A DNA stretch of 64,000 nt, from positions 7,831 through 71,830 of the forward strand of contig JANTGF010000002.1 of the NCBI GenBank assembly GCA_024763075.1, given 5' to 3'. The notes below the pieces were generated by a model that made no database searches, was not told where the DNA came from, and saw only the letters and a program-made list of their open reading frames with translations. Numbering within the stretch: the first letter of the stretch is position 1; each line of letters begins with the position of its first letter. Below are positions 9,125-33,641 of this stretch, piece after piece. Source of the stretch: Bacteroidales bacterium (GTDB lineage: Bacteria > Bacteroidota > Bacteroidia > Bacteroidales > VadinHA17). Made by a program: the position numbers and the translations under genes.

Positions 9125-9138
9125 TGTGCACGTGCACA
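9125..9138. promoter_or_regulatory. Putative LacI-family operator, perfect palindrome TGTGCACGTGCACA
   Basis: Perfect 14-bp palindrome with central CG, 167 nt upstream of the PL1 gene start at 9305. The same 14-mer occurs at 16574 and 32128. Imperfect -7-like boxes follow (TATCTTTA 9148..9155, TATCTTTT 9162..9169). Confidence 0.7.
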
Positions 9139-9304
9139 GATTTTTTTTATCTTTACAAAAATATCTTTTTTTAAGATTTTTTATCGTTGGATGCCACCTA
9201 TGGGACATAAGAATATTCGTTAAGAGAAATAAGAAAATAATTATGCCCGGGTCCGGTAAGCAGGCTCAATGAAATTGACTTAATGATTAAAAGGATTAAA
9301 TATT

Positions 9305-11947
9305 ATGAAAAAAATTCAACTAATGAAAGCCAAGAATTTAATTTTGTTGTTTACATTATTATTCGGTGGGTTACAATTTCTTATTGCACAAACAGAAATT
9401 TTTGAAGATTTACTTGACCACCACATAGGTTTTGGACAGAATGTTACCGGAGGCAAAGGTGGTACTGTAATTACTTTAGGCTCTAATGATTTCAACGCTT
9501 TTGTTGCGGCTGTGGAAGGTATTGGTCCCCGTTGGGTTCGTTTTGAACCTGGAAATTACCGAATATTCATCTCCCGTAATGTACATCTAACCTCCGACCT
9601 TACAATTGACGGTCGGGGAGCCAATGTAGTTTTTACCAATGGTAATTCAGTTAATGCGGAATTCCAGGCGGTCAATCAACAAAATATCATAATCCATAAT
9701 GTTACTCTTGATAGTATGGGGATAGGTGATAATGCCGGAGGTGGACTTAATTTTTTTAATGGAACTCATGATGTATGGATCGACCATGTAACTTTCCATC
9801 ACCTGGGTGATGAAGGAGTTGCTTTTGGTTATGATGAGTTTTTTGATCCTGAACCGGATTCCAATACGGGTAAGAACGTAACCCTTAGTTACTGTAAATG
9901 GTACGATACACCTAAAGCTTTACTACTTGGCTGGCATTCTCAAGCAGCCAATAAAGATAAAGATATTTTAATAACTGTTTACCATTGTTATTTTACTGAG
10001 GGGGTTTCCCGTATACCCAATCAAAGAGGTGGTAAAGTACATTTCTTTAATAATGTGGTTGAAAATTGGGGGTGGTCTGCAATTGAGCAAAACAATGGTT
10101 CTGAGTTGCTTGCTGAAAACAACTGGTTTGGGAGTGGTAGTAGCCCGGCAATGAAAAACTTCGGGTATGGTACAGGATATGGTTATTTTGGTCCGGCATG
10201 GACATGCGACATAAATAATGCCGGAAACCCTGATCATGACGGCCCGGGATTTATTTGCGATTCGGTTTTTCAGGCATCTGATTATTATTCATATACCATG
10301 ATGGATCCGGGAGTGGATATGAAAAATGTTGTAATTGATCGGGCTGGACGTCATGCTTCTCCATTGTGGGATTCTGTTCCAGCAGTGTTGTACAAGCTTA
10401 CTACTGAAATAGTTAGTGGCATAGGTACAATCACCCCTGATAGTGGCACTTTTTATCAAAATGAAGTTGTTACCATAGTGGCAAGAGATACCCTGGGATA
10501 TAAATTTTTTGAATGGGGTGGTGATATATCCGGAACCGAAAACCCGGTTAGTTTTATGATGGATACCAGTAAACATGTGACGGCAAGTTTTAACCAAATA
10601 CCTACCTATACATTATCTGTCAGTGTAAATGGGAATGGGCAGGTAACACCGGACACAGGTGTTTATAATCAGGGAGATACAGTTACTTTATTAGCAACAA
10701 CATCTACCGGGTACAAATTTTCTGGTTGGGAAGGTGATGTTAACGATACTGTTAACCCTTTAAAAATTGTAATGGACAGAAACTTTAATATAACTGCCAA
10801 TTTTATTGAATACAATTCCTTACTTGCTTACTGGACGATGGATGAAACAAGCGGAACAATGCTTCACGATTCATCCGGTAATAATAATGCGGTTTTGAAC
10901 AATTCTGATAGTTTAACTTTTGTAGATGGCAAACTTAATGGAGCAGTATATTTTAACGGAAGCAGGAATGCTATCATTACCGCAACATCCATTAAACCTT
11001 TGTCATTAACTGTTGCTGCATATGTAAAGTTACCCAGTGGAACAACGGGGCCTCGAATGGTAACTGCCCATGGTGATAATTTTGGGTTTATCGTTAACCG
11101 ATTTGATAAAGGTGGAGTTACTTTTTTCATATATGATGGCTCAGGTTGGCCTTCTGTATCTTCAACTAACAGTATTCTTGATGGGAAATGGCATCATATA
11201 GCCGCTACTTTTAATAATTCAAATAAAGTTGCAACCATTTATGTAGATGGTGTTTTGGAAGCCAGCAATTCTTTAGCTAGTTCCATCAACTATGTAAAGG
11301 GAAATGATTATTACATTGGTCGGCATATTTCTATAAATGATTGGAATTTTAAAGGTACAATTGATCAGCTACAACTTTATGATCAGGTACTTAACCTTGA
11401 AGATATTCAAAATATGTTGATAATCAGCTATTATACATTATCTATTCATTCAGAGAATGGCACTGTTTCCTCTTCCCCTGAGCAACAACAATACAAAGAA
11501 GGTACTGAAGTTTCACTCACAGCTGTGCCTGCTTCAGGATACCAGTTCGACAGCTGGAGCGGAAATGCATCAGGAACAGATAACCCGATAAACATTACCA
11601 TGGATTCTAACAAAGAAATTACGGCAGTATTTAGTCTTGTTACTACCAGTATTTTGGAACATCAGGTACACCAAACACTACTTATTAAACCTATACCCAA
11701 TCCTATGACCGATCATACAATGATTGGTTATAGGGTACTGGATAATGCTCGTGTCATTTTATCTGTGCATGATATATCAGGAATAGAAGTGAGCCGGTTG
11801 GTGGATGAATTTAAACCGGCGGGCTCCTACTCTATAAACTGGAACGGTTGTGACTTTAATGGTAACAGCTTGTCAAAAGGTATTTACTTTGTGAGACTGA
11901 AGACTGGATCAGGAGTATTCACCAGAAAAGTTATTCTGGTCAGGTAG
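9305..11947 (+). CDS. PL1-family pectate lyase-like enzyme with InlB-B-repeat-like domains, LamG_3 domain and T9SS sorting domain
   Basis: Signal peptide. PL1 blocks: TIDGRGANVVF, HDVWIDHVTF, GDEGVAFGY, SRIPNQRGGKVHFFNNVVENW, AENNWF. Three ~70-aa repeats of the type TL.V..NGNG.V.P..G.Y..G..V.L.A....GY.F..W.GD. LamG block: AYWTMDETSG...WHHIAATFN...IDQLQLYD. T9SS tail: IPNPMTDHTMIGY...GIYFVRL...KVILVR. Confidence 0.9.
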   Translation: MKKIQLMKAKNLILLFTLLFGGLQFLIAQTEIFEDLLDHHIGFGQNVTGGKGGTVITLGSNDFNAFVAAVEGIGPRWVRFEPGNYRIFISRNVHLTSDLTIDGRGANVVFTNGNSVNAEFQAVNQQNIIIHNVTLDSMGIGDNAGGGLNFFNGTHDVWIDHVTFHHLGDEGVAFGYDEFFDPEPDSNTGKNVTLSYCKWYDTPKALLLGWHSQAANKDKDILITVYHCYFTEGVSRIPNQRGGKVHFFNNVVENWGWSAIEQNNGSELLAENNWFGSGSSPAMKNFGYGTGYGYFGPAWTCDINNAGNPDHDGPGFICDSVFQASDYYSYTMMDPGVDMKNVVIDRAGRHASPLWDSVPAVLYKLTTEIVSGIGTITPDSGTFYQNEVVTIVARDTLGYKFFEWGGDISGTENPVSFMMDTSKHVTASFNQIPTYTLSVSVNGNGQVTPDTGVYNQGDTVTLLATTSTGYKFSGWEGDVNDTVNPLKIVMDRNFNITANFIEYNSLLAYWTMDETSGTMLHDSSGNNNAVLNNSDSLTFVDGKLNGAVYFNGSRNAIITATSIKPLSLTVAAYVKLPSGTTGPRMVTAHGDNFGFIVNRFDKGGVTFFIYDGSGWPSVSSTNSILDGKWHHIAATFNNSNKVATIYVDGVLEASNSLASSINYVKGNDYYIGRHISINDWNFKGTIDQLQLYDQVLNLEDIQNMLIISYYTLSIHSENGTVSSSPEQQQYKEGTEVSLTAVPASGYQFDSWSGNASGTDNPINITMDSNKEITAVFSLVTTSILEHQVHQTLLIKPIPNPMTDHTMIGYRVLDNARVILSVHDISGIEVSRLVDEFKPAGSYSINWNGCDFNGNSLSKGIYFVRLKTGSGVFTRKVILVR

Positions 11948-11974
11948 TGAGTTCAATTCTATTTTATTCTGAAG

Positions 11975-14236
11975 TTATTGCAGAACGAATATCTTCTGCG
12001 ATCTTTCGGTCATCGTATTGCCATGAATATCCGTTGCCGTGATCTCAGTTTTGTATGTATTGAATCCTGAGGCAGGTATCTTATAGCTGAATATCATATC
12101 TTCAGCACTCTTGTCCCCATTTTTACCATCATCATACAGCTCAACCTTAAAGACCTTTCCCGGATAATATACCGAAGTGAGATTGGCCGTTACGCTCTTA
12201 ATTTTTGAACCGTCTATAATTCTGGCCTGAATTGTATTGTCGCCAGGAACATTGATCCATTGCAGAATGGGAGGTGTACGGTCATAATCACCTGAAATTT
12301 TGATTCTGACCTGAGAACGAATAAAATGATGAAATGGAGTAGTATCCGGTACTTGATATTTCGTATATATTTCTAACTCATGCTTAGAAGGGCAATCCCC
12401 GGATATCAATATTTCTGAATATTTTGCCGTAGCACCATTCCAGTCAAACTTTGTCCAGGAGTCTGAATGGCGGATACTAATACCAAAAGGGTTTACATAT
12501 TTATCAGTTGTGAATGCTTCTGCTCTGCGTAGCATATCACCGTCTTTAAAGAGGAGGATAACAGATTCTCCAGGGTCTGCTTTTCCGTCTCCGTTCCCAT
12601 GCCCCAGGAAAAGTGTTGTTGTATCAATTGCCGCTTTGGCAACCCTGATCCTTCTGCCATCAGCTATCTCAAACTTGTCTGTTTTGATTATTTTGTACCA
12701 AACCGGAATAACTACATCCTCATTCCATGTTTTTCCCGAAGCGTCAGATATTAATAGTGAAATCTTAAGAGAGGAAGATGTACCATTGCCGGAGGTAATC
12801 CGGAAGGGGATAATCATCTCTTTTATTTCATCTGTTGATAGGTCTCCCAGTTTTGCTTCAGCAACAGAAAATGTTACATGGGGATTATTTGTATGTACCC
12901 TGGCCGTAATATTATGAGCTAACTTTCCGCCTTTGTTTAGCAATTTTATCTTCAAATTCTGTTCTTTCAGAGTAACGGCAACCGGCCTCTGCATCAGTTG
13001 CCATCCGGCCAGTGTGATGTTGGGCCCTGTCTGTCCGGATGTTATTCCTATTTCATGTTTACTCCCCGAAAGAATGATGTGTAATCTCCCCTCATCATCA
13101 CTGCGTACAAGCCGCCGGGTGAGTTTATTGAAATAGTCATCCCTGTCGTGTATGGTGTACAGTTTTCCTTTTTCGTATACGGGTGGTGTGATCATGATAA
13201 CTTCCACATGAGGCATTAAAGGACCACCGGGCAAGTATTCTCTTACTGAACAACGAAATCCTTTGGAGTTAATATTCTCAAGAACCGTAAAACCAGGCAC
13301 TTGTCTGCTGCCACTGATTTTGTATCCCCAGATCTCAAATTTCGGATAGACATCAATATGATTCCAACGGTCAGGTATAGGCAATGGGTTTTTGAAAGTT
13401 TCCATAAACTGATCAAACATGTCTTTCAGCCCAGCAGATACGTGTATCGTATCATAGATACGAAAGCTATAATTATCCATTACATTGCTCCAGATTCTGT
13501 TTACATCTTCGTGGTAGGACCGTATAAAATCTTTGGTGCCATAATGCAGCAATACACGCATTCCACCATAGTTATTGTACATATACTTGTGGCTATATTC
13601 GACCGGAAATTTCAATGACCCTACTTTAAACTCTGTTGATCCGCAGAAATTTCCTGCAGCACACAGTAAATGTGGATATTTACCTCCAATCCACCAGGAC
13701 ATGAACCCACCCATGGATAATCCTGCAATGGCACGGTGTGTCCTGTCGGGAATAGTTCTGTAATGATCATCAATATATTCAACGAGTTCAGGAAAGTAAG
13801 CAGGAAACTGGCGATATGTATTTTGTTCACCTATATTATATGGTCTTCTTTCATATTTTTCCCAGGGCCAGCGATCATAACCGTCGGGTCTTACTACGAT
13901 TACATCATGAGTGGCGACATATTCAGAAATATTGCGGATATTCAGGCTATCTTCATCGGGAAAGGAAGCATCTCTTGTTACCCCGAAATATCGCTGTGAC
14001 CATCCATGATAGTAATAAATTACGGGGTAATGTTTTAATGAATCCTTATAATAGGATGGGGGTAGAAAGATCCTGTAATTTCTAATCTCTCCTAATATTT
14101 CACTATAGTGCCATTTGTCAAGAATGGTAGATTTCTGTGCCTGAAGAAGGGGAATCATGTATAATGTCAGAAATGCAGACAATACCAGGGCTCTGGAGAT
14201 TAGAAAACGGGGATTGGGATGGACAAGTAGTTTCAC
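11975..14236 (-). CDS. Secreted esterase (PF00756 putative-esterase / CE1-like) with long C-terminal beta-rich extension
   Basis: Signal peptide. YPVIYYYHGW and the nucleophile motif AIAGLSMGG. Lies 54 nt downstream of the PL1 gene 14291..16543 on the same strand, so it is probably in the same operon. Confidence 0.82.
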   Translation of the reverse strand: MKLLVHPNPRFLISRALVLSAFLTLYMIPLLQAQKSTILDKWHYSEILGEIRNYRIFLPPSYYKDSLKHYPVIYYYHGWSQRYFGVTRDASFPDEDSLNIRNISEYVATHDVIVVRPDGYDRWPWEKYERRPYNIGEQNTYRQFPAYFPELVEYIDDHYRTIPDRTHRAIAGLSMGGFMSWWIGGKYPHLLCAAGNFCGSTEFKVGSLKFPVEYSHKYMYNNYGGMRVLLHYGTKDFIRSYHEDVNRIWSNVMDNYSFRIYDTIHVSAGLKDMFDQFMETFKNPLPIPDRWNHIDVYPKFEIWGYKISGSRQVPGFTVLENINSKGFRCSVREYLPGGPLMPHVEVIMITPPVYEKGKLYTIHDRDDYFNKLTRRLVRSDDEGRLHIILSGSKHEIGITSGQTGPNITLAGWQLMQRPVAVTLKEQNLKIKLLNKGGKLAHNITARVHTNNPHVTFSVAEAKLGDLSTDEIKEMIIPFRITSGNGTSSSLKISLLISDASGKTWNEDVVIPVWYKIIKTDKFEIADGRRIRVAKAAIDTTTLFLGHGNGDGKADPGESVILLFKDGDMLRRAEAFTTDKYVNPFGISIRHSDSWTKFDWNGATAKYSEILISGDCPSKHELEIYTKYQVPDTTPFHHFIRSQVRIKISGDYDRTPPILQWINVPGDNTIQARIIDGSKIKSVTANLTSVYYPGKVFKVELYDDGKNGDKSAEDMIFSYKIPASGFNTYKTEITATDIHGNTMTERSQKIFVLQ

Positions 14237-14290
14237 AATTCTGGGTTTCGTTATATGGTCATATGAATATTAAATGTAATAAAATATCTG

Positions 14291-16543
14291 TCACAAGTTA
14301 ATGTAAAGTTTGGTTGCTTCTGCTTCGGATCCGTTATTCAGATAAATAAAGTACAAACCACCTGGAAGTCCGGAAGTAATCAGGTCAGCTTCATGGGTGC
14401 CGGAAGCCATGACCGAATTCACCAACGTAGCAACCTTCTTCCCTGTTATATCCAATAATTCAAGAATAACAGGATATTTCCCTGCCGTAACATCATATTT
14501 TATTTTATAACCATAGACCGTAGGGGTGCATCTTAATTTTGTTTTATGAAAACTAATTGTCTCAACTCCAACTCCCGTGAGGCTTTCAACATTTATATCA
14601 TCCCAGTTTGTCAGGAAGGAAGTAGTCCCTACCCCGACTCTGCCTTCAGGAATATTCTCCTCCTCTACCTGAAGGACCTGTGCATTCTGAAAATTCACGG
14701 CAATTGTATTTCCCTGTACCGTTAGCTTCACATCGAACAAACCGTTTCCATGCATATCCACCAGACCGGTATTACCAATTTCTTTTATGGTTCCGTTGGT
14801 GACTTGATAAAGTTTGTTCTTATAACTAATGGTGCTGAACTGCATAAAATAGTAATTATTTTTATCTGTCCATCCAAAAACTAAAGCAGACTCAGATAAT
14901 CCTTGTGTTGTGAAATTTTCTGCTGTTTTAACTTTTGCTGAAAATATAAAATCTTTATAGGTTCGGTCCTTTATCAGGCTATATTCCTGGAGAGTATCCA
15001 GAAAAGCGATGGGCTCAAAATCACTGACATCAATACCATACATATACTTGTGTGCGTCATAATCCAGTACCACGCTCCATCGATAATCGTTTAACGGCTC
15101 CCAATTCAGCGCATCGCCAAGAAAACTCACATCTGGATTAAAAACCGTTCCCCCGTTCACATAAAAATAAAGGAGATAGTCACTTGAATTTGTAACGCCT
15201 GTAGAATTATCCCTGCATTTGCAATAATAGGTATTGTAGCTGCTACCTTGCAGACCTGTGATGCCGGTAGTATGCACCGTGTCGCCAACACTTGTAAAAG
15301 TGTAAGGCATGTTTTCGTAAGCTGTTCCCGGTAAAGTATCATACCTGCAGGTGGCAAAGCTTGCAGTATGAATAGTCAGGGTTGTTTCGCTCATTTCAGG
15401 AGGATATTCTATATTCATAGGAGCTCCCCCTGTAATACATGGTAGGTTGTCGTCAAAAGTTATCCATATTGGATCATCCGATCTCCCAGCATACGTAATT
15501 ACATCCGAGTGCATTAAATCATCCGGTTCCTGCATATCATAACAATAGAATACCCGGGCTTCGAAAACATCCCCGCAGATAAACCCCGAACCGCTGTTTT
15601 CAAAATCCACATCAATGTGATTGTTCCGTTTGCATATTCTTCCTTCTTCAACTCCTGCATAATTCGTTCTGAATGCATGCTCCCCTCCGTTTTGATTATG
15701 ATCCCGGTACCAGCAGTTCTCAATTAACATCTGACCTCCGTTGCCAACATCAGAACCTGCATATCCCCAATTCTCGCATATATTGTTGTAAAAATGTAAT
15801 TTCCCTCCTCGCATTAACGGAATACGGGCAAGCCGTGGATTCGGGCTCCGGTCACCATCAAACCAGCAATGATGAACAGTAATTGTTTGGTCCTGGTCTT
15901 TTGAGGGATCATCGGAATGCCATCCAAACAACAGAGCTTTGGGGGTGTCATACCAGTGACAGTAACTAATGGTAAAATTTTTTCCGGTATTGTCAGCCGG
16001 TATAGGATCCCAGGTCTCATCATAGCCAATAGAAACAGCTTCATCTCCAATATCCCTAAAAGTACAATGGTCAATCCAAATATCATGAGTTCCATTGTAA
16101 AAACAAAGACCCCTTCCATCATTATCACCAATACCTGCATGAATTATGGATATGTTGTGTATAATGATATTGGAGTCATTTACTGCATCGAACTCAAAAT
16201 GTGTTCCCTTATATGTGAAAACCACATTTGCCCCACGTCCGTCAATGGTTAAATTTGAGGATAAATTTACAACTCTCTGTAAGGTTATAGTGTCGACACC
16301 CGGTGCAAAACGTACCCATCTGGCTCCTGTTCCTTCAACAGCATTGGCAAAAGCATTAAAATCATTGGTGGTTAAAGTAATCACATTGCCGCCTTTTCCT
16401 CCGGTCACATGACGGCCAAACCCGGTCCGATGCTCCAGCAGGTCCTCAAACATAGCTGTGCTATCACCCTGTGCAAAAGCAATTTCTGTCCCGTAACTAA
16501 ACAGTAGGATCAATCCAGTAATATAACTTATTATTCGTTTCAT
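14291..16543 (-). CDS. PL1-family pectate lyase-like enzyme with Cys-containing Ig-like module, concanavalin-like domain and T9SS sorting domain
   Basis: Signal peptide. PL1 blocks: TIDGRGANVVF, HDIWIDHCTF, GDEAVSIGY, ARIPLMRGGKLHFYNNICENW, IENCWY. The module TCRYD...GDTVHTTGITGL...YYCKCRD is shared with the CotH protein. T9SS tail: ...ELLDITGKKVATL...GGLYFIYL...KLYINL. Confidence 0.9.
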   Translation of the reverse strand: MKRIISYITGLILLFSYGTEIAFAQGDSTAMFEDLLEHRTGFGRHVTGGKGGNVITLTTNDFNAFANAVEGTGARWVRFAPGVDTITLQRVVNLSSNLTIDGRGANVVFTYKGTHFEFDAVNDSNIIIHNISIIHAGIGDNDGRGLCFYNGTHDIWIDHCTFRDIGDEAVSIGYDETWDPIPADNTGKNFTISYCHWYDTPKALLFGWHSDDPSKDQDQTITVHHCWFDGDRSPNPRLARIPLMRGGKLHFYNNICENWGYAGSDVGNGGQMLIENCWYRDHNQNGGEHAFRTNYAGVEEGRICKRNNHIDVDFENSGSGFICGDVFEARVFYCYDMQEPDDLMHSDVITYAGRSDDPIWITFDDNLPCITGGAPMNIEYPPEMSETTLTIHTASFATCRYDTLPGTAYENMPYTFTSVGDTVHTTGITGLQGSSYNTYYCKCRDNSTGVTNSSDYLLYFYVNGGTVFNPDVSFLGDALNWEPLNDYRWSVVLDYDAHKYMYGIDVSDFEPIAFLDTLQEYSLIKDRTYKDFIFSAKVKTAENFTTQGLSESALVFGWTDKNNYYFMQFSTISYKNKLYQVTNGTIKEIGNTGLVDMHGNGLFDVKLTVQGNTIAVNFQNAQVLQVEEENIPEGRVGVGTTSFLTNWDDINVESLTGVGVETISFHKTKLRCTPTVYGYKIKYDVTAGKYPVILELLDITGKKVATLVNSVMASGTHEADLITSGLPGGLYFIYLNNGSEAEATKLYINL

Positions 16544-16573
16544 TCTAAAGTTTTATAAATAAGTGTAAAAAAA

Positions 16574-16587
16574 TGTGCACGTGCACA
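16574..16587. promoter_or_regulatory. Putative LacI-family operator, perfect palindrome TGTGCACGTGCACA, in a divergent PL1/PL1 intergenic region
   Basis: Perfect 14-bp palindrome located between gene starts 16543 (-) and 16649 (+). It ends 18 nt upstream of a TATCTTTG -7 box. Confidence 0.75.
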
Positions 16588-16605
16588 AATATATGAAAAA
16601 ATTAT

Positions 16606-16613
16606 TATCTTTG
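16606..16613 (+). promoter_or_regulatory. Bacteroidota-type -7 promoter box (TATCTTTG, consensus TAnnTTTG)
   Basis: Exact match to TAnnTTTG, 36 nt upstream of the ATG at 16649. Confidence 0.5.
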
Positions 16614-20275: not shown

Positions 20276-20289
20276 TGTTCTCGTGAACA
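20276..20289. promoter_or_regulatory. Putative distal operator half of a tandem pair (TGTTCTCGTGAACA)
   Basis: The arms TGTTC/GAACA are reverse complements around a CG-containing centre. It is separated by exactly 8 A/T nt from the proximal site. The same tandem layout occurs at 33606/33628. Confidence 0.6.
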
Positions 20290-20297: not shown

Positions 20298-20311
20298 TGT
20301 GCTCGTGCACA
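20298..20311. promoter_or_regulatory. Putative LacI-family operator (TGTGCTCGTGCACA, one mismatch to the palindrome)
   Basis: 13 of 14 positions match TGTGCACGTGCACA. It ends 17 nt upstream of the TATCTTTG box and lies between divergent starts 20244 (-) and 20359 (+). Confidence 0.7.
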
Positions 20312-20328
20312 AAAATAAAAACAATTTC

Positions 20329-20336
20329 TATCTTTG
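20329..20336 (+). promoter_or_regulatory. Bacteroidota-type -7 promoter box (TATCTTTG)
   Basis: Exact TAnnTTTG match, 23 nt upstream of the ATG at 20359. Confidence 0.5.
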
Positions 20337-23316: not shown

Positions 23317-23328
23317 AACATCTTAATC

Positions 23329-25041: not shown

Positions 25042-25090
25042 GCCAGCTTTCTCCTGCCGGTGAAGGCTGATTTGATTCATAGTGAATTAT

Positions 25091-25130
25091 ACTCCGGATA
25101 TCAATTATTATTTTTGATATCCGGAGTTTT
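25091..25130 (+). terminator. Rho-independent terminator of the TBDT/beta-helix operon
   Basis: Perfect 14-bp stem ACTCCGGATATCAA (25091..25104) / TTGATATCCGGAGT (25114..25127) with a 9-nt loop, followed by TTTT. Confidence 0.8.
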
Positions 25131-25143
25131 ATATGGGAGGTAC

Positions 25144-25966
25144 TCAATTCATTTGCTGTGTCAACGGATTTACAATAATAAAGACAACCCCATGTGCAGG
25201 AACGGTTGAGGAGAATCCTTTCTGCGTGATGTCTTCTTTCGCTGTCCTTATGTTCTTTACCCTGGCCTTCAGCATGGCAGGGTAGCATGTCTCTTCCCAG
25301 CTAACATGCATATTTTGTCCGGAATTACTTTGGTTAAACAAAAAGTGGTTCGCTTTAGGTTTCCAGTTTTTTCTCCCATTCCCAGGGTTTCTGAGTCCCC
25401 CATTCACAAATACTTAGCACCATAGGGCGGCCTGCTGCCTGGATGGCGTCACGAATTAAAGAATAGGAGGCCGGGGCATCCTGGGTGGATGTGTTGCACC
25501 AGTCCACCTTGACGTAGTCCACTTCCCATGCCGCAAACTGACGCATGTCCTGGAATTCATATCCTCTCATACCAGGGCGTCCCTCACAGGTAAGGGTTCC
25601 TGCACAGGAATAGAGTCCGAATTTTAGTCCCAGGGAGTGAATATAGTCAGCAAGCACCTTCATTCCAGATGGAAAACGGTCCGGGTCAGCAATGATGTTA
25701 CCGACAGAATCTCGTCCTGTCTGCCAGCAGTCGTCTATTACCAGGTATTCATACCCACACGCTCTTAGTCCCGAAGCGACCATAATTTCGGCTATTTCCC
25801 TGACCACTTCCTCGCTTACATCGCACCTGAAAGCATTCCAGCTGTTCCATCCCATTGGAGGAGTGGGTGCGAGCTCGTTTATCCGATTCTGACTTGTGAC
25901 TGATCCGGATATGGACAGCCCCAGGAAAATCAGTATTAAACTTCTTATGAGCGATTTGATATGCAA
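25144..25966 (-). pseudogene. GH27 alpha-galactosidase pseudogene (internal deletion plus frame break)
   Basis: The N-terminal 203 aa (25355..25966) carry GH27 blocks: PPMGWNSWNAF, YLVIDDCWQ, LKFGLYS, DYVKVDWC, SICEWG. The frame then stops. The overlapping frame 25144..25407 encodes only the C-terminal beta-sandwich (NWKPKANHFLFNQSNSG...VSW...VPAHGVVFIIVNP). The ~130-140 aa normally between them, including the WNDPDML acid/base region, are absent. The frames meet at an A6 run (GAGAAAAAACTGG). Confidence 0.7.
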
Positions 25967-25968
25967 GG

Positions 25969-27219
25969 TTAGGGACCCCTCTTTTCAATGCGAATCTCTC
26001 CATGCTCACGGGTATATTTTAAGAGTTCAACGCCAGCCAGGATCACTGCGCCAAAACCCACATCATTCTGACGCTGAGCACGGGTATAGTAATAATTCAG
26101 ATCATCCTGGATGCCTGTACCCATACAATTTTGGTTGATCGTTCCACGATCTGATGCACTCATTAAACCTTTCCATCCGTTGCCTGCAATGGTAATGTAT
26201 CTGGCTGGCAGGATACCCTGATTGACAGCAAAGGCTATCGCATAGGTAAACATAGCCGTACCTGAAGTTTCCAGATATGAATCTTCCTTGTCCAATAATT
26301 GGTGCCAATGACCTGATTTGCTTTGATATCCGGCTACACCCAGGATCTGGCGAATCAGGTTATTTTTTACTTTTTCCCATCCAGGATGATTCTTCGGAAG
26401 GAATTTCAACAACTCCACCTGCGCCATGATGATCCACCCATTCACCCGGGACCAATGTGCAACGGAGTGTTTCTCAATATCACTGTACCATCCATGGTAG
26501 TATAGCTGGGCATGTTCATCCCACAAATATTTAGTAAACAGGAGTACCTGTTTTACGGCCTCATCGAAATATTTTCGTTCACCGGTAAGATTACCCATTC
26601 TGGCTAAAAAAGGCACGCTCATATAAAGGTCATCTCCCCAGATGGTCTTGTCTGTAGGGAAATCCCGGCAATAGGTGCCATCATCCAGCCTGTACATGTC
26701 ATTAATCATAAAATCTGCTGCATTATTGATGTAATCCAGAGCATCATTTCGTTCCCTCAGATGATAAACATCTATTATACTGGCACCCATAGCCCCACAG
26801 TCATCAAGCTGTTCAAAAACAAACATCTGACCAAATGGATAGCTCCATTTATTCCTTCCATTGGCTTTGCCTTTGAAATAGGGGGAATTGTTGAAGATGA
26901 AATCATAATTTTTTAAACTATAATCAATGTCCCTCCGGTCATTAAGCACCTCACCGAGTTCTAGCATACCTATATTTACGACGCCATTATGATACTCCCA
27001 ACGTGATAGATGGTTAATGAACCATATCTCGCTGAAGGGGTTTAAATTCGCAGCACTGTTATAAACCTTGCCGGTTTTGTAATCCACAAACCCCCTGATA
27101 TTGTCATGAACAACAACGTCTGCAATCTGCCTTAGATCTTTTTCAAACTGAATAGAATCCTGGGCTATGACCAGATGTCCGCTTAAAATATATACGATTA
27201 TGAAAATGATCCTTTTCAT
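25969..27219 (-). CDS. GH105/GH88-family unsaturated (rhamno)galacturonyl/glucuronyl hydrolase
   Basis: Signal peptide. YteR-like blocks: IWGDDLYMSVPFLARMG, YYHGWYSD, HWSRVNGWIIMAQVELL, ETSGTAMFTYAIA. Confidence 0.85.
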   Translation of the reverse strand: MKRIIFIIVYILSGHLVIAQDSIQFEKDLRQIADVVVHDNIRGFVDYKTGKVYNSAANLNPFSEIWFINHLSRWEYHNGVVNIGMLELGEVLNDRRDIDYSLKNYDFIFNNSPYFKGKANGRNKWSYPFGQMFVFEQLDDCGAMGASIIDVYHLRERNDALDYINNAADFMINDMYRLDDGTYCRDFPTDKTIWGDDLYMSVPFLARMGNLTGERKYFDEAVKQVLLFTKYLWDEHAQLYYHGWYSDIEKHSVAHWSRVNGWIIMAQVELLKFLPKNHPGWEKVKNNLIRQILGVAGYQSKSGHWHQLLDKEDSYLETSGTAMFTYAIAFAVNQGILPARYITIAGNGWKGLMSASDRGTINQNCMGTGIQDDLNYYYTRAQRQNDVGFGAVILAGVELLKYTREHGEIRIEKRGP

Positions 27220-27239
27220 GAAAATATTCTTAAGATTGT

Positions 27240-27276: not shown

Positions 27277-27301
27277 ATACTTAATTTATTAGATTATAAA
27301 A

Positions 27302-29071
27302 CTACTTCAACTTGATCATTTTATTGATCTTTGAGGATACACCATTTTGTAATCTATAAATATAGATTCCACCGGGTAATGCCTGGCCAGAGTCGTCTGT
27401 CCCATTCCAATGGATTGTGTATTCACCGGGTACTTGTTGTTCCCTAACTAAAACGGTAACCTCTTTTCCTGAAATATCATAAACTGAAAGTTCTACTGGT
27501 GCCGCATGTTCGATTCGATAATAAATAGTAGTCGATCCTGTAAACGGATTCGGAAAATTTGTTAAAGTTTCAGTGGCAAGCTCCTTCGGGTGTTTTATAC
27601 CAGTTACATTCTCGAACCAATTCAGGTCACCGAGGGGTAGTCCGTCCGTTCCTGCTGTTTTTAAAGTTTCATTTGTATAAGCATAGTTTTCCGGTAAAGG
27701 CCATGCAAGCTGAAATTCTTTCCCCGGATCATCAATGTTTGTCAAATAGGGGGTCCAACCAGGCTGATTCCGAAATCCGTCCAGCCAGGTAATCATTGGA
27801 TTAAACACCCTGTCAATTACAGCCTGATCAAATCCCGGATCGAAAGTACTTGTCTTTGCATCCTCAGAGCCCATATGCCCATATGTGTTTTCCACTACAC
27901 ACATGGGAGCCATTTTAAATAAAGCTGAATCAAGATAAGTCATACTAATGTAAGGAACCTCAGCTCCACCATCCTCATCAATTGTATCCCAGGCCTCAAT
28001 GAGTTGCTTGGGCCAGTATATACAGTTGTTCCTGATTGTCCATGTACGCTGGCTGTGGGCAGCCCTCAACCCTCCGGTAGTATCTATGCCAAGAACATCG
28101 TGCATGGGGCCCAGTGCATCGATACCAATGGGATACATACTGTACACCGAACCTGCCTCATATCGGCCGGGGTTGTATATGACTGTATCATAAACAGAAG
28201 AGGAATCCTGGTAATATTGTTCATACCTGGATTTCGGTATGCCTGAGGATTCCCATCCTACAAACATATTATTGGTAATCGTTACATTTGCCTGGAAGCC
28301 GGCGAAAACACAACCCCTGGTAGTACCAAAGAATGTATTGTGATTAATGATAATTGCTTTACTAATTTCACCCCAGTAACCAATAATACCACTATTGCCA
28401 ATGTTTGACATGGTATTGTTTTCAAATATCAAGCTATCACGCCATCCACCACCTGTGGAACTCCATCCGGCATACAATGCACCCCCGGACCAGTCATCGG
28501 ATGGTGTACGGTTATTCCTGAAATTACAGTTAGTGATCTTTACATACTGACCGTTGCCTAAGGAACTTAATGTATTGTTACCACCTCCGTTAAAAACGCA
28601 GTTGTCAAGAATTATCCGGGCATTATCGCCAACCATGTCAACCAGTCCTTTCACTGCTACTCCGGTTGAGATTCCATCGCTTGTAAGGAATTGGAAAATG
28701 ATGTTTTTTGCAGTAAACACCTGGCCAACTCCTTCGCAATGGAACCAACGAGACACATATTCATTGTTTCCTGATTTTCTAGGTAAAACAAATGGAGGAA
28801 CGCCATCCCCCTCTTCACCTAACAGTGTGATATCATCATTTACATTGATGATGTCAGTTAAAAAATAAACTCCACCCTGGGAGAGTACAAAAACGTGGTT
28901 GTTTAGCATTCCGCTATTATCCATTTCTGCTCCAACTACCTCAAAAAGGTCGGCTCCATTGGAGACGAAAACAGTATCGTTTTGTGCAGAGACATTCAGA
29001 ACACCTACTAATGCCATAATATGCAAAGCAGTTGTCCAGGCTTTCATTTTTACAGTAAATAGTTTTTTCAT
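27302..29071 (-). CDS. Right-handed beta-helix repeat protein with T9SS sorting domain (paralog of 23329..25041), downstream of the second TBDT
   Basis: Signal peptide. Beta-helix repeats: NCVFNGGGNN, ITNCNFRNN, FENNTMSNIGN, INHNTFFG, ITNNMFVG. Shared partner-specific blocks: FQLAWPLPENYAYTN, GDLNWF. T9SS tail: NFPNPFTGSTTIYY...GIYIYRL...KMIKLK. Starts 38 nt after the TBDT stop. Confidence 0.85.
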   Translation of the reverse strand: MKKLFTVKMKAWTTALHIMALVGVLNVSAQNDTVFVSNGADLFEVVGAEMDNSGMLNNHVFVLSQGGVYFLTDIINVNDDITLLGEEGDGVPPFVLPRKSGNNEYVSRWFHCEGVGQVFTAKNIIFQFLTSDGISTGVAVKGLVDMVGDNARIILDNCVFNGGGNNTLSSLGNGQYVKITNCNFRNNRTPSDDWSGGALYAGWSSTGGGWRDSLIFENNTMSNIGNSGIIGYWGEISKAIIINHNTFFGTTRGCVFAGFQANVTITNNMFVGWESSGIPKSRYEQYYQDSSSVYDTVIYNPGRYEAGSVYSMYPIGIDALGPMHDVLGIDTTGGLRAAHSQRTWTIRNNCIYWPKQLIEAWDTIDEDGGAEVPYISMTYLDSALFKMAPMCVVENTYGHMGSEDAKTSTFDPGFDQAVIDRVFNPMITWLDGFRNQPGWTPYLTNIDDPGKEFQLAWPLPENYAYTNETLKTAGTDGLPLGDLNWFENVTGIKHPKELATETLTNFPNPFTGSTTIYYRIEHAAPVELSVYDISGKEVTVLVREQQVPGEYTIHWNGTDDSGQALPGGIYIYRLQNGVSSKINKMIKLK

Positions 29072-29109
29072 AATACTTAGTTTTAAAAGGTGAATAAATA
29101 AATTATCAG

Positions 29110-32067
29110 TTATTGTTTTTTATTGAGATTCCATCGCAAGCCAATGTCAATGGTCATACCATATTGTTCAGTATGTGTGGGATAATCCTTTCCCAGGGAA
29201 AATACGGTGTCTTCAGCATTGTTGATGTTATTAAAATTAGTGAAAAGCACCAATCCATAGGGTAATTTCTGTGTAGCCGATATGTCAAATCTGAGGTAGG
29301 ATCCTGTAATGGTTCGCATTTTTATAACATAGGCGGTTCCCCGGAAAACATTATCCTGGTACCTCATGGAAGTACGTATAGAAAATCCTTTATAATCGTA
29401 GCCGAGTGATAAGTTCAGGATATGAGAAGGTTGGTCGATAAGCCTTGATTGATAAGGATGGTCATAAAAAACTGTTGTATCCGGTGTCCATGGATTATTA
29501 TCGTGATCGAAAGACTCGGCATGTCCGGCAGGATAGGTGGCCCTGGACTTAAGAAAGGTGTAGTTTGCTGAGAATACAAGTCCTTTCAGTGCACCGGGAA
29601 GATACCAAAAAGAAGTTTGCCAGTCCAGTTCAATCCCGTCGATCTTTACTCCGAAAGTATCGTTATAATGCCAGTTGTAACTATATCCACTGAAAATTTC
29701 TGGCACATCAAATTCCAGATATCGTTCGCCCACTTTTTTTGTGTAATCCCTAAAGATTTTATTCTCAACCCTCTTACTAAAAAGGTTTATGTTTAACAAA
29801 CCTACATAATTGTTATGAATAGAAGCAACAAGGTCAATATTTTTTGATAATTCCGGTTCAAGGTTTATATTATTAATGACCAGTTTTGGGTCAGAGGTAT
29901 TTTGATCACCGTAATCCTGACGGGGTATGATCCAATTGAAGTTTGGTCTGGAAAGCGTATGAGTATAGGCCAAATGGAACTGCAACCACTTAAGAGGTTT
30001 GATTTTAAGATGGATCATAGGAAGTAAAAATTGATTTTCCCTGGTAGTAGTGACCAATGTGTCGCCAACATACCTGTTGTAATCAGGACCCGATTGTAAT
30101 GAATTTCCCTGGTGGGCAGTGTAAATAGTCCGATTCTGTTCAAGACGCAATCCTGGATTAAACTCAACGATCTCGCCAAAATTAAATGGAGTCATAATAT
30201 AGAAGCCAAGATAATTTTCTGTACCATAGTAATTGTGTGTGAGAGATTGGTACATGTCATGGCGCAGGTAAGGTAGGTTGTGGGGTACCGTATCTCTGAT
30301 TTTGAAATAGTCTTCCATTAAATAATGCTCTAGATGTTTCAGTTTCTCAATATCGGTTCCAGGAGCCCAGTCTTCAAACTTTCCGCCAAAAAAACGGTCT
30401 GAATCATAATTGGGATCTATAAAATATGTATAATTAATATATGCTTCATCTTCGATTTCTCCATCTTCGAATAGCTCTCTGTTGTCTGCAATGTAGTCAC
30501 GTCCCAGTTTTTGACCGGCAGTGACAAGATTTGCATTCCATAGATCATAACTAAACTCTCTTTTTAAATGCCTGTATCTCCCACCGATTTTTAATTTGCC
30601 GCTTACGGACTGGTTTTGAAACAAATTCCATTCCAGGTTCATGTCGGCCTGATATTGTCTGTGTTTTGTTGTCGCAGGTGAATGTGAGAAACCAATTGTC
30701 CTTGTCCGGTTAACATCAAAATTACTATAATTCATGATAGAGTCAGGATCAACGTTATCCGGTACCTGGTCCATCGCATTGTCATGTGAAAAACCGAAAT
30801 TCATGCTTTCAGGGTTATTTGATCCTGAAAATGAATGTGACACTTGTCCGTCAATCTTAACTGCACCAAATTCTTTTTCAAAAGAAAGAACATTATTCAG
30901 AACTTTTTGATTATTAATCATATAATTGGTGTTTAAAGAAATGTACCTGGCCTTTGTAGGAAATGCCTGACTGTATGTCTTTGTTTCTTCAAGTCGCTGT
31001 GAATAGAAATTCTTAAGTTTAATAGAACCATTTCTGAGTGGATAATCAATAACCAGGGTGGCATTGTACCTGTTGGTTCTTCTTAACTGATCGCTAAGTG
31101 ATTCCTGGTATATGGTTATATCGCTTGTATCAATTCCGCTGTTGTACGGATAAACACCTATTTCACGTATATGTGCACTCCTGTTCCTGTTCTCGGCCTG
31201 GCCCATAAGAAAAATTCCCAATTTATTATTAAAGAATCTATTGCTTAAACTGCCCATAAAGATGTAGTCATTAAATGTATTTTTTAGATAATTATAGCTG
31301 CCCTGAGCCATTGCTTCGGCATGAAAACCTTTAGGAGCAGACCTAAGCCTGAAATTTACTGCACCACCGATGAAATCTCCTTCCATATCTGCTGTTGGTG
31401 ACTTAACCACTTCTATACCTTCAAGTGAATAGGCTGAAATACCAGACAGGCTGACACTTCTATCGTTAGCATCTGTTGATGCAAGCTCTACTCCGTCAAC
31501 CATAACCTTCGTGTATTTTGGTGATAGACCACGTACGATCACTTTATTTCCCTCTCCTCCTGTCCTTTGTAATGAAATACCAGGTAACCTGCTTAAAGAT
31601 TCAGCTGCATTGGCATCAGGTAACTCCCTGATACGGTCGGAAGATACTACATTCTTAATGTTACCAGCTGCCAATTGTTGGTTAATGGCTTTATATTGTC
31701 CCTTGGCCTGGGCTGTCACTTTTACTTCCTCAAGATTCTTGCCTCCGCTGAAACTAAGTTGGATATTTTTTTCCACTTGTATGCCTGCAGTAATATTTAT
31801 CTGTTCCTGATAACTTTCATATCCGATATAAGAAGTGACTAGTGTATATTCCCCATTTGGTATTTTGGTTATCAAATAATTTCCTTTTGCGTCGGTAACA
31901 GCACCGATGCTGGTTCCTTTTAAATAAACATTTGCTCCGATTAATGCCTCCTTTGTCGTCTTGTCCGTGACAGACCCTGTTAAAGTAGCATTGGTTTGAG
32001 CCAGAACGGACAATGAATGCAAAGTAATGGAAAAGAAAAAAATCCAGATGGTGAGTAAAGATTTCAT
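29110..32067 (-). CDS. TonB-dependent outer-membrane transporter, paralog of 20359..23316
   Basis: Start moved to MKSLLTIWIFFFSITLHSLSVLAQ (ATG at 32067). The track start at 32142 lies inside the operator. Colinear with the other TBDT: GSVTDKTTKEALIGANVYLKGTSIGAVTDAKGNY; IRELPDANAAESLSRLPGISLQRTGGEGNKVIVRGLSPKYTKVMVDG; ends ...IGLRWNL. Confidence 0.9.
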   Translation of the reverse strand: MKSLLTIWIFFFSITLHSLSVLAQTNATLTGSVTDKTTKEALIGANVYLKGTSIGAVTDAKGNYLITKIPNGEYTLVTSYIGYESYQEQINITAGIQVEKNIQLSFSGGKNLEEVKVTAQAKGQYKAINQQLAAGNIKNVVSSDRIRELPDANAAESLSRLPGISLQRTGGEGNKVIVRGLSPKYTKVMVDGVELASTDANDRSVSLSGISAYSLEGIEVVKSPTADMEGDFIGGAVNFRLRSAPKGFHAEAMAQGSYNYLKNTFNDYIFMGSLSNRFFNNKLGIFLMGQAENRNRSAHIREIGVYPYNSGIDTSDITIYQESLSDQLRRTNRYNATLVIDYPLRNGSIKLKNFYSQRLEETKTYSQAFPTKARYISLNTNYMINNQKVLNNVLSFEKEFGAVKIDGQVSHSFSGSNNPESMNFGFSHDNAMDQVPDNVDPDSIMNYSNFDVNRTRTIGFSHSPATTKHRQYQADMNLEWNLFQNQSVSGKLKIGGRYRHLKREFSYDLWNANLVTAGQKLGRDYIADNRELFEDGEIEDEAYINYTYFIDPNYDSDRFFGGKFEDWAPGTDIEKLKHLEHYLMEDYFKIRDTVPHNLPYLRHDMYQSLTHNYYGTENYLGFYIMTPFNFGEIVEFNPGLRLEQNRTIYTAHQGNSLQSGPDYNRYVGDTLVTTTRENQFLLPMIHLKIKPLKWLQFHLAYTHTLSRPNFNWIIPRQDYGDQNTSDPKLVINNINLEPELSKNIDLVASIHNNYVGLLNINLFSKRVENKIFRDYTKKVGERYLEFDVPEIFSGYSYNWHYNDTFGVKIDGIELDWQTSFWYLPGALKGLVFSANYTFLKSRATYPAGHAESFDHDNNPWTPDTTVFYDHPYQSRLIDQPSHILNLSLGYDYKGFSIRTSMRYQDNVFRGTAYVIKMRTITGSYLRFDISATQKLPYGLVLFTNFNNINNAEDTVFSLGKDYPTHTEQYGMTIDIGLRWNLNKKQ

Positions 32068-32101
32068 TTGATAAAATTTATTTATTTTTTCAATTACTGA
32101 A

Positions 32102-32109
32102 CAAATATA
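32102..32109 (-). promoter_or_regulatory. Bacteroidota-type -7 promoter box (TATATTTG on the minus strand)
   Basis: Exact TAnnTTTG match, 35 nt upstream of the start at 32067 and 18 nt from the operator. Confidence 0.5.
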
Positions 32110-32127
32110 TGATTTTTTTTTGTATAT

Positions 32128-32141
32128 TGTGCACGTGCACA
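32128..32141. promoter_or_regulatory. Putative LacI-family operator, perfect palindrome (extends to 18 bp ATTGTGCACGTGCACAAT, 32126..32143)
   Basis: Perfect palindrome in the divergent region between TBDT start 32067 (-) and LacI-family gene start 32310 (+). Confidence 0.75.
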
Positions 32142-32309
32142 ATATTTTTTATTTTTCTGCATTCTTATTTAGATATGTTATAAATAAATTATACTTTTAC
32201 GTATTTTTTAATTGAAAAAGGTTTAATGATGTGGATGTAAAGAATATTTAGTTATTAGAAACAGCTAATAAAAACTAGAACATTATGAGAATAATCACAA
32301 CCAACTAAA

Positions 32310-33353
32310 ATGAAACAGGAATATACGCTTCAGGATATTGCAGATATGGCCCAAGTCTCAAGAGGTACTGTGGACAGGGTGATACACGGTAGAGGTAAAG
32401 TGTCAAAAGACACCTACAAAAAGATCAGATATGTACTTGATAAAATCAGTTATAAACCAAACATGATTGCCAGGTCCCTGCGAAAGGGGGTATTGTTCAA
32501 GATTGCTGTACTGATGCCGGATTATAATTATGAAATCTATTGGAAACCTGCCGTGAAGGGTGTTGAGGATGCTAAAAATGAGTATTCGATATTTGGCATT
32601 AAGATTGATACATTTTTATTCAATCCGAATAAATTTCAAAGTTTTAGGCAGATGTACATTTCAATTCTGGATAAGAATTATAGTGCTGTGCTCGTTGCTC
32701 CGTTTTTTTTCCGCGAATCACTGGATTTTTTTAAAAAATGTATTGAAATTGGTTTACCTGTTTTTACGTTTAATGCCCAACTGGACAATGAATGTATTGT
32801 GTCTCATGTAGGACAGGATCTGATTAGTAGTGGGCAAACTGTTGCTAGTCTGTTGTACAAGATATTTGGAAAGACAGCTGAGTTTTTAATTGTGCATATT
32901 AAAGAGAATGTTGAAAATTCAAAACATATGCAGGAAAAAGAGCAAGGTTTCAGAAATTTTTGTGTTTCAGTCGGTATGCCAAAAAAATCGGTACATGTTC
33001 AAAATATTAATAATATTAAAGATTTAAATAAACAACTTTTATCCTATTTGAGTGACCATCCGCAAATAAAAGGTATTTGTGTATCAACTTCAAAGGTGTG
33101 GATGGTTGCTGAAACATTGCATAATCATTCAGAGAAACCTCTATTGGTCGGATATGATTTGTTAGAACCGAATGTAAAATATCTCAGATCCGGCCAAATT
33201 GATATTCTGATCTACCAGAATCCATACCAGCAATCATCACTTTCTATTTCAAACATAATTGATTATCTGATGGTTGATAAAAAGGTCCAGAAAAAATATT
33301 TGCTACCCATAGAAATAGTAATTAAGGAGAATCTGGATACTTTTTTAGGTTGA
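32310..33353 (+). CDS. LacI-family transcriptional regulator
   Basis: N-terminal HTH_LacI block YTLQDIADMAQVSRGTVDRVIHGRGKVSKDTYKKIRYVLDKISYKPNMIARSLRKG, followed by a periplasmic-binding-protein-like sugar-binding core of ~280 aa. Confidence 0.9.
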   Translation: MKQEYTLQDIADMAQVSRGTVDRVIHGRGKVSKDTYKKIRYVLDKISYKPNMIARSLRKGVLFKIAVLMPDYNYEIYWKPAVKGVEDAKNEYSIFGIKIDTFLFNPNKFQSFRQMYISILDKNYSAVLVAPFFFRESLDFFKKCIEIGLPVFTFNAQLDNECIVSHVGQDLISSGQTVASLLYKIFGKTAEFLIVHIKENVENSKHMQEKEQGFRNFCVSVGMPKKSVHVQNINNIKDLNKQLLSYLSDHPQIKGICVSTSKVWMVAETLHNHSEKPLLVGYDLLEPNVKYLRSGQIDILIYQNPYQQSSLSISNIIDYLMVDKKVQKKYLLPIEIVIKENLDTFLG

Positions 33354-33605
33354 TGGAGGCATATTTGGCAGGTGGTTAATTTATATCCTCAGGTATTTCC
33401 AGGTCAGGATTATTGCTTTTTATCTGATTTTCTTCATTTTTAGGCCTTTTATTATTGGGTTAAGAAAAACTTTTGTGATAAATTGATCTCAGATGGGTTT
33501 TTTATGGGCTATTTTCCCTTATATATATAATGGTGTAATCTTCACACTATTCATGCTTTTTTATAGAAATTGGATGTAGGTATTTTTATTTTAATTAAGA
33601 AAAAT

Positions 33606-33619
33606 CGTGCTCGTGAACA
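33606..33619. promoter_or_regulatory. Putative distal operator of a tandem pair (CGTGCTCGTGAACA)
   Basis: Related to the 20276 site (..T.CTCGTGAACA). An 8-nt A/T spacer separates it from the proximal site. Confidence 0.55.
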
Positions 33620-33627
33620 ATTTTTAA

Positions 33628-33641
33628 TGTGCTCGTGCACG
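33628..33641. promoter_or_regulatory. Putative LacI-family operator (TGTGCTCGTGCACG)
   Basis: 12 of 14 positions match the palindrome. It ends 18 nt upstream of the TATATTTG box. Confidence 0.65.

Follow-up and report, generated by a model that had tools for sequence, protein, structure and literature searches.

A putative LacI-family regulon with CG-centred operators spans a 28-kb lyase and TonB-dependent transporter gene cluster of a Bacteroidales bacterium

In a stretch of 64,000 nucleotides from a Bacteroidales bacterium (assembly GCA_024763075.1, contig JANTGF010000002.1, positions 7,831 to 71,830; in the following "the window", in whose own numbering positions are given), seven CG-centred palindromes are located in front of genes for proteins resembling polysaccharide lyase family 1 (PL1), TonB-dependent transporters (TBDTs) and further secreted proteins. 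These palindromes are very probably the operators of the LacI-family protein encoded at 32310..33353 on the plus strand, which would act as a repressor by occluding the promoters. The five operator regions serve all transcription units from 9.1 to 37.5 kb, i.e. a 28-kb cluster. The evidence computed directly comprises site statistics, promoter geometry, the protein family of the regulator, the co-occurrence of motif and regulator, their co-variation, and conserved synteny.

The whole window was searched with TGTGCACGTGCACA, allowing up to three mismatches, and 100 dinucleotide shuffles served as controls. The search yielded eight matches, compared to a mean of 1.18 and a maximum of 4 in the shuffled sequences, none of which (0/100) reached eight. 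Three matches are exact copies (9125, 16574 and 32128) and four are degenerate, with three (20276), one (20298), three (33606) and two mismatches (33628), respectively. These seven sites are all intergenic (7/7), and the eighth match, with three mismatches at 16999, lies within a coding region. A position weight matrix (PWM) built from the seven sites assigns them scores of 24.2-31.8 bits, compared to 5.5 bits for the next-best position in the 64 kb. An earlier note on this DNA, made by eye from the sequence, had described seven intergenic CG-centred palindromes, and the mismatch search, the shuffles and the PWM bear out this description. O1 (9125..9138, 27.9 bits) is a perfect 14-bp palindrome that precedes the PL1-like gene at 9305 by 166 nt, and O2 (16574..16587, 30.3 bits), likewise perfect, is common to two divergent units, a PL1-like gene with an esterase gene leftwards and a PL1-like gene rightwards. 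O3 and O5 are tandem pairs, consisting of O3-distal (TGTTCTCGTGAACA, 20276..20289, 24.2 bits) and O3-proximal (TGTGCTCGTGCACA, 20298..20311, 28.8 bits), and of O5-distal (CGTGCTCGTGAACA, 33606..33619, 26.1 bits) and O5-proximal (TGTGCTCGTGCACG, 33628..33641, 27.1 bits); as had been noted, the 14-mers of both pairs are separated by 8 A/T bases, which puts their centres 22 bp apart. O4 (core 32128-32141, 31.8 bits) lies between a TBDT operon and the regulator gene, hereafter lacI. Its palindrome had correctly been recognized as longer than 14 bp, but the perfect symmetry extends over 22 bp (32124..32145, ATATTGTGCACGTGCACAATAT) instead of the 18 bp stated. An alignment of the five regulatory regions revealed that they have only the operator and a downstream TAnnTTTG box in common, while the flanks share no homology; therefore, the sites are not copies of one duplicated segment.

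The sequence TAnnTTTG is the -7 element of Bacteroidota promoters, in which the -33 element lies some 19-21 bp further upstream. Consistent with the earlier claim, an exact TAnnTTTG is located 17-18 nt from the promoter-proximal operator in four of the five regions, for which we estimate P ~6e-9 based on the density of such boxes in the intergenic DNA of the window. These four boxes are TATCTTTG at 16606..16613 (plus strand), 18 nt past O2, as putative promoter of the PL1-like gene at 16649; TATCTTTG at 20329..20336 (plus strand), 17 nt past O3-proximal, in front of a TBDT/β-helix operon; TATATTTG at 32102..32109 (minus strand), 18 nt from O4, in front of the TBDT/β-helix/GH105-like operon; and TATATTTG at 33660..33667 (plus strand), 18 nt past O5-proximal, in front of the LamG-array gene. 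Two more exact boxes are found on the minus strand, each of which shares the final 2 nt of an operator (P ~9e-5), namely TATATTTG at 16586..16593 at O2, the putative promoter of the PL1/esterase unit, and TATTTTTG at 20310..20317 at O3-proximal, the putative promoter of a HEAT/AhpC gene, with both O3 sites located downstream of this latter box. A single operator region thus appears to serve two divergent promoters both at O2 and at O3; the start-site region of the two minus-strand promoters would lie beneath the operator. From the distance of 17-18 nt to the boxes and the promoter consensus we conclude that the operators are placed at the -33 position, and promoter occlusion, the mode of action suggested in the earlier note, would fit this placement. 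The suggested control of the divergent HEAT/AhpC gene and that of the PL1/esterase unit are supported by the minus-strand boxes that overlap operators. The autoregulation of lacI, which had been suggested as well, is plausible on grounds of conservation. A scan for sigma-70-type promoters was uninformative for this organism.

The proposed repressor, which had been assigned to the LacI family from its translation, indeed matches PF00356 (HTH_LacI, 47.2 bits with a cutoff of 27, residues 6-51), followed by PF13407 (Peripla_BP_4), a type-I periplasmic-binding-protein-like effector domain (105.9 bits, residues 65-320). Among solved structures, the closest one is 3gbv (E = 4.5e-30), which is a putative LacI-family regulator. 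The hinge YKPNMIARSLRKG, which contains PNMIARSL, aligns with the hinge YRPNAVARGLASK of CcpA such that the leucines match (Leu57 in the regulator), and residues P50, N51, A54 and L57 are invariant across 36 homologues. An even palindrome with a central CG is the norm for operators of this family (PMC4052901). In the NCBIfam scan of the regulator, none of the 17 families listed matched at the equivalog level, and no NagR model was among them.

Next to the statistics within the window, related genomes tie the motif to the regulator. A single-protein query of genome contigs returned no loci and an alignment-based query was needed; this search yielded 80 loci (1.40 Mb) with LacI orthologues of 35-56% identity, out of at least 543 relatives, spanning Marinilabiliales, Flavobacteriaceae, Cytophagales and others. 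With at most one mismatch, the motif TGTGYWCGWRCACA occurs 128 times in these 80 loci, compared to 0-4 times in shuffles, and 119 of the 128 sites (93%) are non-coding although open reading frames (ORFs) hold 89% of the bases. A site is located shortly upstream of the regulator gene in 50 of the 80 loci, and adjacent sites are spaced 21-23 bp apart in 47 of 53 pairs. The sole gene common to all 80 loci is the LacI orthologue itself. For the contig of the window, a lookup returned short Logan contigs only: L001 is 5 kb long, while L089 extends the sequence by about 2.5 kb and lacks sites.

In LacI, half-site specificity is determined at the start of the recognition helix (Y17/Q18). In the orthologue group, the first recognition-helix residue (x in VS-x-GTVDRV) co-varies with half-site positions 5-6: arginine, which is present in the window protein and its nearest relatives, goes along with CA/CT in 28 of 30 half-sites, lysine, found in 33 loci that are mostly from Flavobacteriaceae, with CT/TT in 148 of 156, and isoleucine with TA in all eight. 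Moreover, the gene order is conserved in two related loci (L090 and L092), in which a LacI protein with 56-57% identity is flanked by an orthologous TBDT (57-58%) and an orthologous β-helix protein with type IX secretion system (T9SS) sorting domain (47-48%; TBDT/β-helix genes at 4740-9604 in L090 and 4150-9059 in L092); one motif site is located between the LacI and the TBDT/β-helix genes and another one after lacI. Because of this co-occurrence, spacing, co-variation and synteny, the assignment of the operators to the regulator and the membership of the TBDT/β-helix genes in the regulon appear about as firm as computation allows. The distance between operator and -7 box is not universal and amounts, depending on the lineage, to 19-29, 35, 38-40 or 56 nt in the orthologue loci; since these offsets cluster by lineage, the geometry of 17-18 nt is specific to the lineage of the window. 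In many Flavobacteriaceae loci (L012-L043 and others) with offsets of 19-29 or 35/56 nt, an exact TAnnTTTG is located 13-15 nt upstream of the regulator ATG, which implies a very short or absent 5' leader of the predicted transcript.

On the basis of these data, we propose that dimers of the regulator would bind the CG-centred sites in the absence of an inducer, with two dimers 22 bp apart on the same face of the DNA at O3 and O5. RNA polymerase would be blocked by an operator that covers the -33 region and ends 17-18 nt upstream of the -7 box, and at the divergent promoters at O2 and O3 by an operator that overlaps the -7 box and the start site. A sugar inducer would free the repressor from the DNA. 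From 9.1 to 37.5 kb, the resulting regulon would comprise seven to eight transcription units, namely three units for PL1-like lyases (one also containing an esterase gene), two TBDT/β-helix operons, one of them with a GH105/88-like hydrolase gene, the LamG-array gene, the HEAT/AhpC gene and, probably, lacI itself, for which autoregulation is plausible. We infer binding, repression, cooperativity and the identity of the inducer from sequence.

Several observations weigh against this model. The co-variation and the site counts come from related genomes and do not represent independent events. O1 has near-matches only and no exact plus-strand -7 box at 17-18 nt, and the promoter of lacI was not identified in the -7 box analysis; the distance of 168 nt between O4 and the lacI ATG lies at the far end of the family distribution. 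In addition, a second paralogue elsewhere in the genome could share or own the sites: two LacI paralogues, each about 55-57% identical to the window protein, coexist within one assembly or sample and share the operator motif in two cases (L002/L003 in MAG062 and L090/L092 in ERZ23498500), and cross-regulation is possible for such pairs.

As to the inducer, we clustered all ORFs of the 80 loci and counted the operons downstream of sites. The conserved core of targets consists of a nucleotidyltransferase together with an APH/GHMP-type sugar kinase (37 loci), a 640-aa protein resembling NagB-II, a glucosamine-6-phosphate deaminase-like protein (25 loci; NF002557, 1032 bits), a major facilitator superfamily transporter with NagP as best match (24 loci), and GalE (13 loci); SusC/SusD genes are among the motif-linked genes in some orthologue loci. 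The genes regulated in the nearest relatives encode two proteins of GH109 (the α-N-acetylgalactosaminidase family), a GH89 NAGLU, a ROK kinase, a DegT aminotransferase, GFO oxidoreductases, a PL9-like protein and PfkB. A metagenome scan for an operator followed after 18-19 nt by TAnnTTTG yielded 22 matches, mostly due to chance in TG-rich repeats; only those in L095, L104/L108, L110/L113 and L116 look genuine, and the three promoters thus recovered precede genes for an APH kinase (tandem operators), a ROK kinase (tandem operators) and a Tat-signal GFO oxidoreductase. Since the conserved targets of the orthologue group are of the amino-sugar type, an N-acetylhexosamine-type sugar or a derivative may be the inducer, a proposal to which we give about an even chance and which we place ahead of a galacturonide or 2-keto-3-deoxygluconate (KDG), a rather doubtful candidate. 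It is a lead and not a result, because it crosses 40-57% identity and because the content of the regulon differs strongly between lineages. Two further points count against it: the window contains no NagP, NagB or kinase genes, such that the specificity may have shifted, and the PL1-like and GH105-like genes would fit pectin, too.

The earlier note had expected a pectin locus with galacturonide or KDG effectors, i.e. the same regulon in a pectin system whose repressor senses galacturonide or KDG-type products. This is conceivable, but we regard it as improbable. Three genes match the Pfam family Pectate_lyase_4, the PF07470 protein is nearest to GH105-type structures (3k11, YteR), an esterase gene is part of the cluster, a Pel9A-like β-helix gene is located within the regulated operon of L090, and Bacteroides possesses LacI-family regulators of hexuronate utilization (PMC3878776). 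However, kduI, kduD, uxa and kdg genes as well as GH28, CE8 and CE12 genes are absent from the 64-kb window, and pairing of hexuronate genes (kdu/uxa/kdg) with the regulator was found in none of the orthologue loci examined, where the targets are those of the amino-sugar type listed above, from NagP-like transporters to GH109 and GH89. Furthermore, the PL1 scores are modest (62-72 bits), and among solved structures the PL1-like lyase matches VexL best (2.9e-16) and PelC less well (9e-12); VexL cleaves the Vi antigen, a polymer of N-acetylgalactosaminuronic acid (poly-GalNAcA) (PMC6003464). The substrate is presumably a uronic-acid polymer, with pectin as a possibility.

A more speculative and rather unlikely scenario combines these observations, in which an ancestral N-acetylhexosamine-sensing LacI regulator was rewired in this lineage onto a SusD-less system of T9SS-secreted PL1-like lyases, esterase and TBDT/β-helix proteins directed against an acidic amino-sugar polymer. 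The target would then be, e.g., a Vi-antigen-like poly-GalNAcA, or another bacterial capsule or exopolysaccharide, and not plant pectin, and the T9SS-anchored β-helix protein paired with each TBDT would act as a lyase or would bind glycans at the cell surface in place of SusD. If true, the phylum would possess a type of glycan-foraging module that has not been described before.

With respect to the factor that binds the palindromes, the outer arms TGTG and CACA resemble Crp half-sites, and a Crp-like global sugar regulon has been predicted in Bacteroides (PMC3878776), so that another factor, e.g. of the Crp/Fnr type (TGTG-N6-CACA), might be considered, with the LacI gene merely being one of its targets. 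We judge this very unlikely: the arm spacing is 2 bp shorter than in Crp sites, the centre is CG, with G at position 8 in 128 of 128 sites and C at position 7 in 122 of 128, the LacI orthologue is the only gene that accompanies the motif in every locus and mostly has a site just upstream, and its recognition-helix residue co-varies with the inner operator bases. Still less credible is the idea that the palindromes act as RNA hairpins (terminators or attenuators with T runs) or constitute a repeated extragenic element, because, even though 9125-9138 and 16574-16587 were marked in a terminator scan, each with a stem of 5 bp and a T run, and the hairpins have folding energies of -6 to -10 kcal/mol, most sites lie upstream of a -7 box and hence are not transcribed from those promoters, pairing is not conserved (perfect palindromes in 23 of the 128 related sites; positions 5 and 10 complementary in 65 of 128, with 37 C-A mismatches), the flanks lack shared homology, and no Rfam family matched anywhere in the window. 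A restriction or methylation site (overlapping GTGCAC/CACGTG) was considered as well and dropped; the inner bases vary by lineage while the outer arms and the CG are kept.

The genes downstream of the operators were assigned to families with Pfam and NCBIfam, which agreed with the calls of the earlier note (three PL1-like genes, two TBDT/β-helix operons, the LamG-array gene and the HEAT/AhpC gene). The three PL1-like lyases, all matching PF00544 (Pectate_lyase_4) with the scores given above, and two of them carrying LamG, InlB-B and T9SS domains, are encoded at 9305..11947 (plus strand; LamG, InlB-B repeats and T9SS sorting domain), at 14291..16543 (minus strand; the protein with VexL, 6fi2, as best solved relative) and at 16649..19060 (plus strand; LamG and T9SS domain). 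An esterase-domain protein (11975..14236, minus strand) is the second gene of the leftward unit. A protein with HEAT repeats, an AhpC/TSA (redoxin) domain and a signal peptide (19099..20244, minus strand) is a probable member of the regulon, and the gene downstream of O5 (33755..37507, plus strand) encodes five LamG domains together with a T9SS sorting domain.

The two TBDT operons each combine a transporter with a β-helix T9SS protein of about 570-590 aa, at 20359-25041 on the plus strand (TBDT at 20359..23316, β-helix protein at 23329..25041) and at 27302-32067 on the minus strand (TBDT paralogue at 29110..32067, β-helix protein at 27302..29071); the latter transporter is the one with 57-58% identity to the TBDTs adjoining LacI in L090 and L092. 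The TBDTs belong to the TIGR01782 (TonB-Xanth-Caul) type with 358 bits (cutoff 310), and match the SusC/RagA family TIGR04056 with 80 bits only (cutoff 368), restricted to the N-terminus and plug. No regulon gene matched the SusD family, and the gene following each TBDT is that of the β-helix T9SS protein. Since the SusC score is far below the cutoff and SusD is missing, the cluster is not a canonical polysaccharide utilization locus (PUL), and the view of the TBDT operons as a SusC/SusD-type locus does not hold. The family of the β-helix partner comprises 278 homologues, all annotated as hypothetical, some of which occur in Melioribacter and Balneolaceae and some of which carry CBM35. A sequence search of the partner against the PDB gave no match, and the fold search with the model of the 27302..29071 protein (pLDDT 85.5) returned PL6 alginate lyases as best, but weak match (TM score about 0.3). 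SusD-less TBDTs paired with a T9SS β-helix protein of an uncharacterised family represent a mildly unusual output side of the regulon.

The leftward TBDT operon continues with a PF07470 (GH88/GH105) protein resembling unsaturated-uronyl hydrolases (25969..27219, minus strand; nearest solved structures 3k11 and GH105 YteR) and ends with a truncated GH27-like (Melibiase_2) ORF (25355..25966, minus strand). This ORF encodes 203 aa and covers profile positions 1-170 of 284, followed by 313 bp without continuation in any frame (ORF and gap together at 25042-25966); this operon end probably represents the remnant of a truncated gene. Divergent from O1, at a distance of 369 nt, a GH20 hexosaminidase-like protein is encoded on the minus strand (6572..8755), whose membership in the regulon is uncertain. 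The intergenic region between this gene and the first PL1-like gene is unusually long (8756-9304, 549 bp) and contains TATTTTTG on the minus strand at 9156-9163, 17 nt to the right of O1; a leftward transcript from this box would have a leader of about 390 nt, in which O1 would occupy roughly +12 to +25.

Other genes of the window lack operator sites. An AXE1/GCE-like esterase (2658-3884) is 62-64% identical to esterases directly upstream of the LacI paralogues in MAG062 (L002, L003), which are preceded by motif sites; the gene in the window has none, which exemplifies regulon turnover. A secreted protein with LamG, CotH kinase and T9SS domains is encoded directly ahead of the regulon (3913-6465), again without an operator. 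On the other side, the region 41408-58755 contains three 3-keto-disaccharide hydrolase genes together with genes for GFO/IDH/MocA oxidoreductases, including a match to the BT_2158-like glycoside 3-dehydrogenase, DoxX and AP_endonuc_2; this cluster looks like a pathway of the glycoside-3-oxidation type. Its DoxX gene (45630-46124) and a motif-linked gene in MAG062 (L002, 6601-7068) share 51% identity. Two adjacent proteins of 337 and 411 aa at 77-2332 have faint matches to DUF4185/DUF5005 only and are possibly glycoside-hydrolase-like β-propellers.

The mechanism proposed here is that of a standard, textbook LacI-type repressor/operator regulon, and the regulator family is widespread. The earlier statement that regulation by one LacI-type repressor is uncommon in this phylum was overstated, given the at least 543 relatives across Bacteroidota and the LacI-type regulators already listed among PUL regulators (PMC7641319; PMC3878776). 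What is unusual is that an amino-sugar regulator has apparently been rewired to control secreted lyases. The mechanism of regulation has been characterised in a small number of PULs only (PMC7641319), and among Bacteroidota, cytoplasmic one-component repressors of polysaccharide systems appear in databases but have rarely been dissected; no description of the present orthologue group or its motif was found in the searchable literature. The analysis supplies an operator model (TGTGYWCGWRCACA, with frequent tandem copies spaced 21-23 bp), a promoter geometry and a specificity-determining residue for a phylum-wide orthologue group, whose regulon content shifts from amino-sugar salvage genes to lyase/TBDT modules. 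It thereby offers a compact system for the study of regulon rewiring and for substrate prediction of uncharacterised T9SS lyases and SusD-less TBDT modules.

Like LacI, PurR and CcpA, the regulator combines a helix-turn-helix domain with a hinge helix whose leucine would insert at the central CpG of an even palindrome of 14-22 bp, and the co-variation found here mirrors the role of the first recognition-helix residues in half-site specificity of these proteins. It differs from them in its Peripla_BP_4-type effector domain, in the lack of a C-terminal tetramerisation segment, as judged from its length alone, and in the tandem operators 21-23 bp apart, which replace distant auxiliary operators. 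With AusR, the GntR-family regulator of the alginate PUL of Zobellia galactanivorans (PMC7641319), it shares the principle of a cytoplasmic one-component repressor, as opposed to an HTCS, SusR or ECF system, acting on a polysaccharide-lyase system in an environmental member of the Bacteroidota; AusR, however, belongs to another regulator family with another operator and controls a canonical SusC/SusD PUL, as shown experimentally (PMC7641319). The LacI-family regulons predicted in Bacteroides (KdgR BT0487, UxaR BT0824, UxuR BT1434 and UxmR BT3613; PMC3878776, PMC4052901) resemble the present one in phylum, protein family, palindromic operators and their inference from comparative genomics, and some of them include extracellular enzymes. 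Compared by gene content, these regulators have uxa, uxu and kdg neighbours, in contrast to the amino-sugar-type genes of the present orthologue group and the lyases and TBDTs in this lineage.

The closest characterised analogue in architecture is the N-acetylglucosamine carbohydrate utilization system containing TBDTs (CUT system) of Xanthomonas campestris with NagR and NagQ (PMC4173781). The cluster in the window combines TBDTs, degradative enzymes and a cytoplasmic regulator, which corresponds to the definition of a CUT system (PMC4173781); inner-membrane transporter and cytoplasmic catabolic genes, absent among the operator-linked genes of the window, are present in the orthologue loci of other lineages. 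In both systems, a LacI-type repressor governs, or here would govern, several TBDTs and glycan-degrading operons from multiple promoters, in X. campestris with release by a monosaccharide (PMC4173781), the TBDTs are of the non-SusC type TIGR01782, and the orthologue group described here also controls NagP-like and NagB-II-like genes. The present system differs from that of X. campestris in the phylum, in its TAnnTTTG promoters, in its T9SS-secreted lyases, as opposed to glycoside hydrolases there, and in the pairing of each TBDT with a β-helix T9SS protein.

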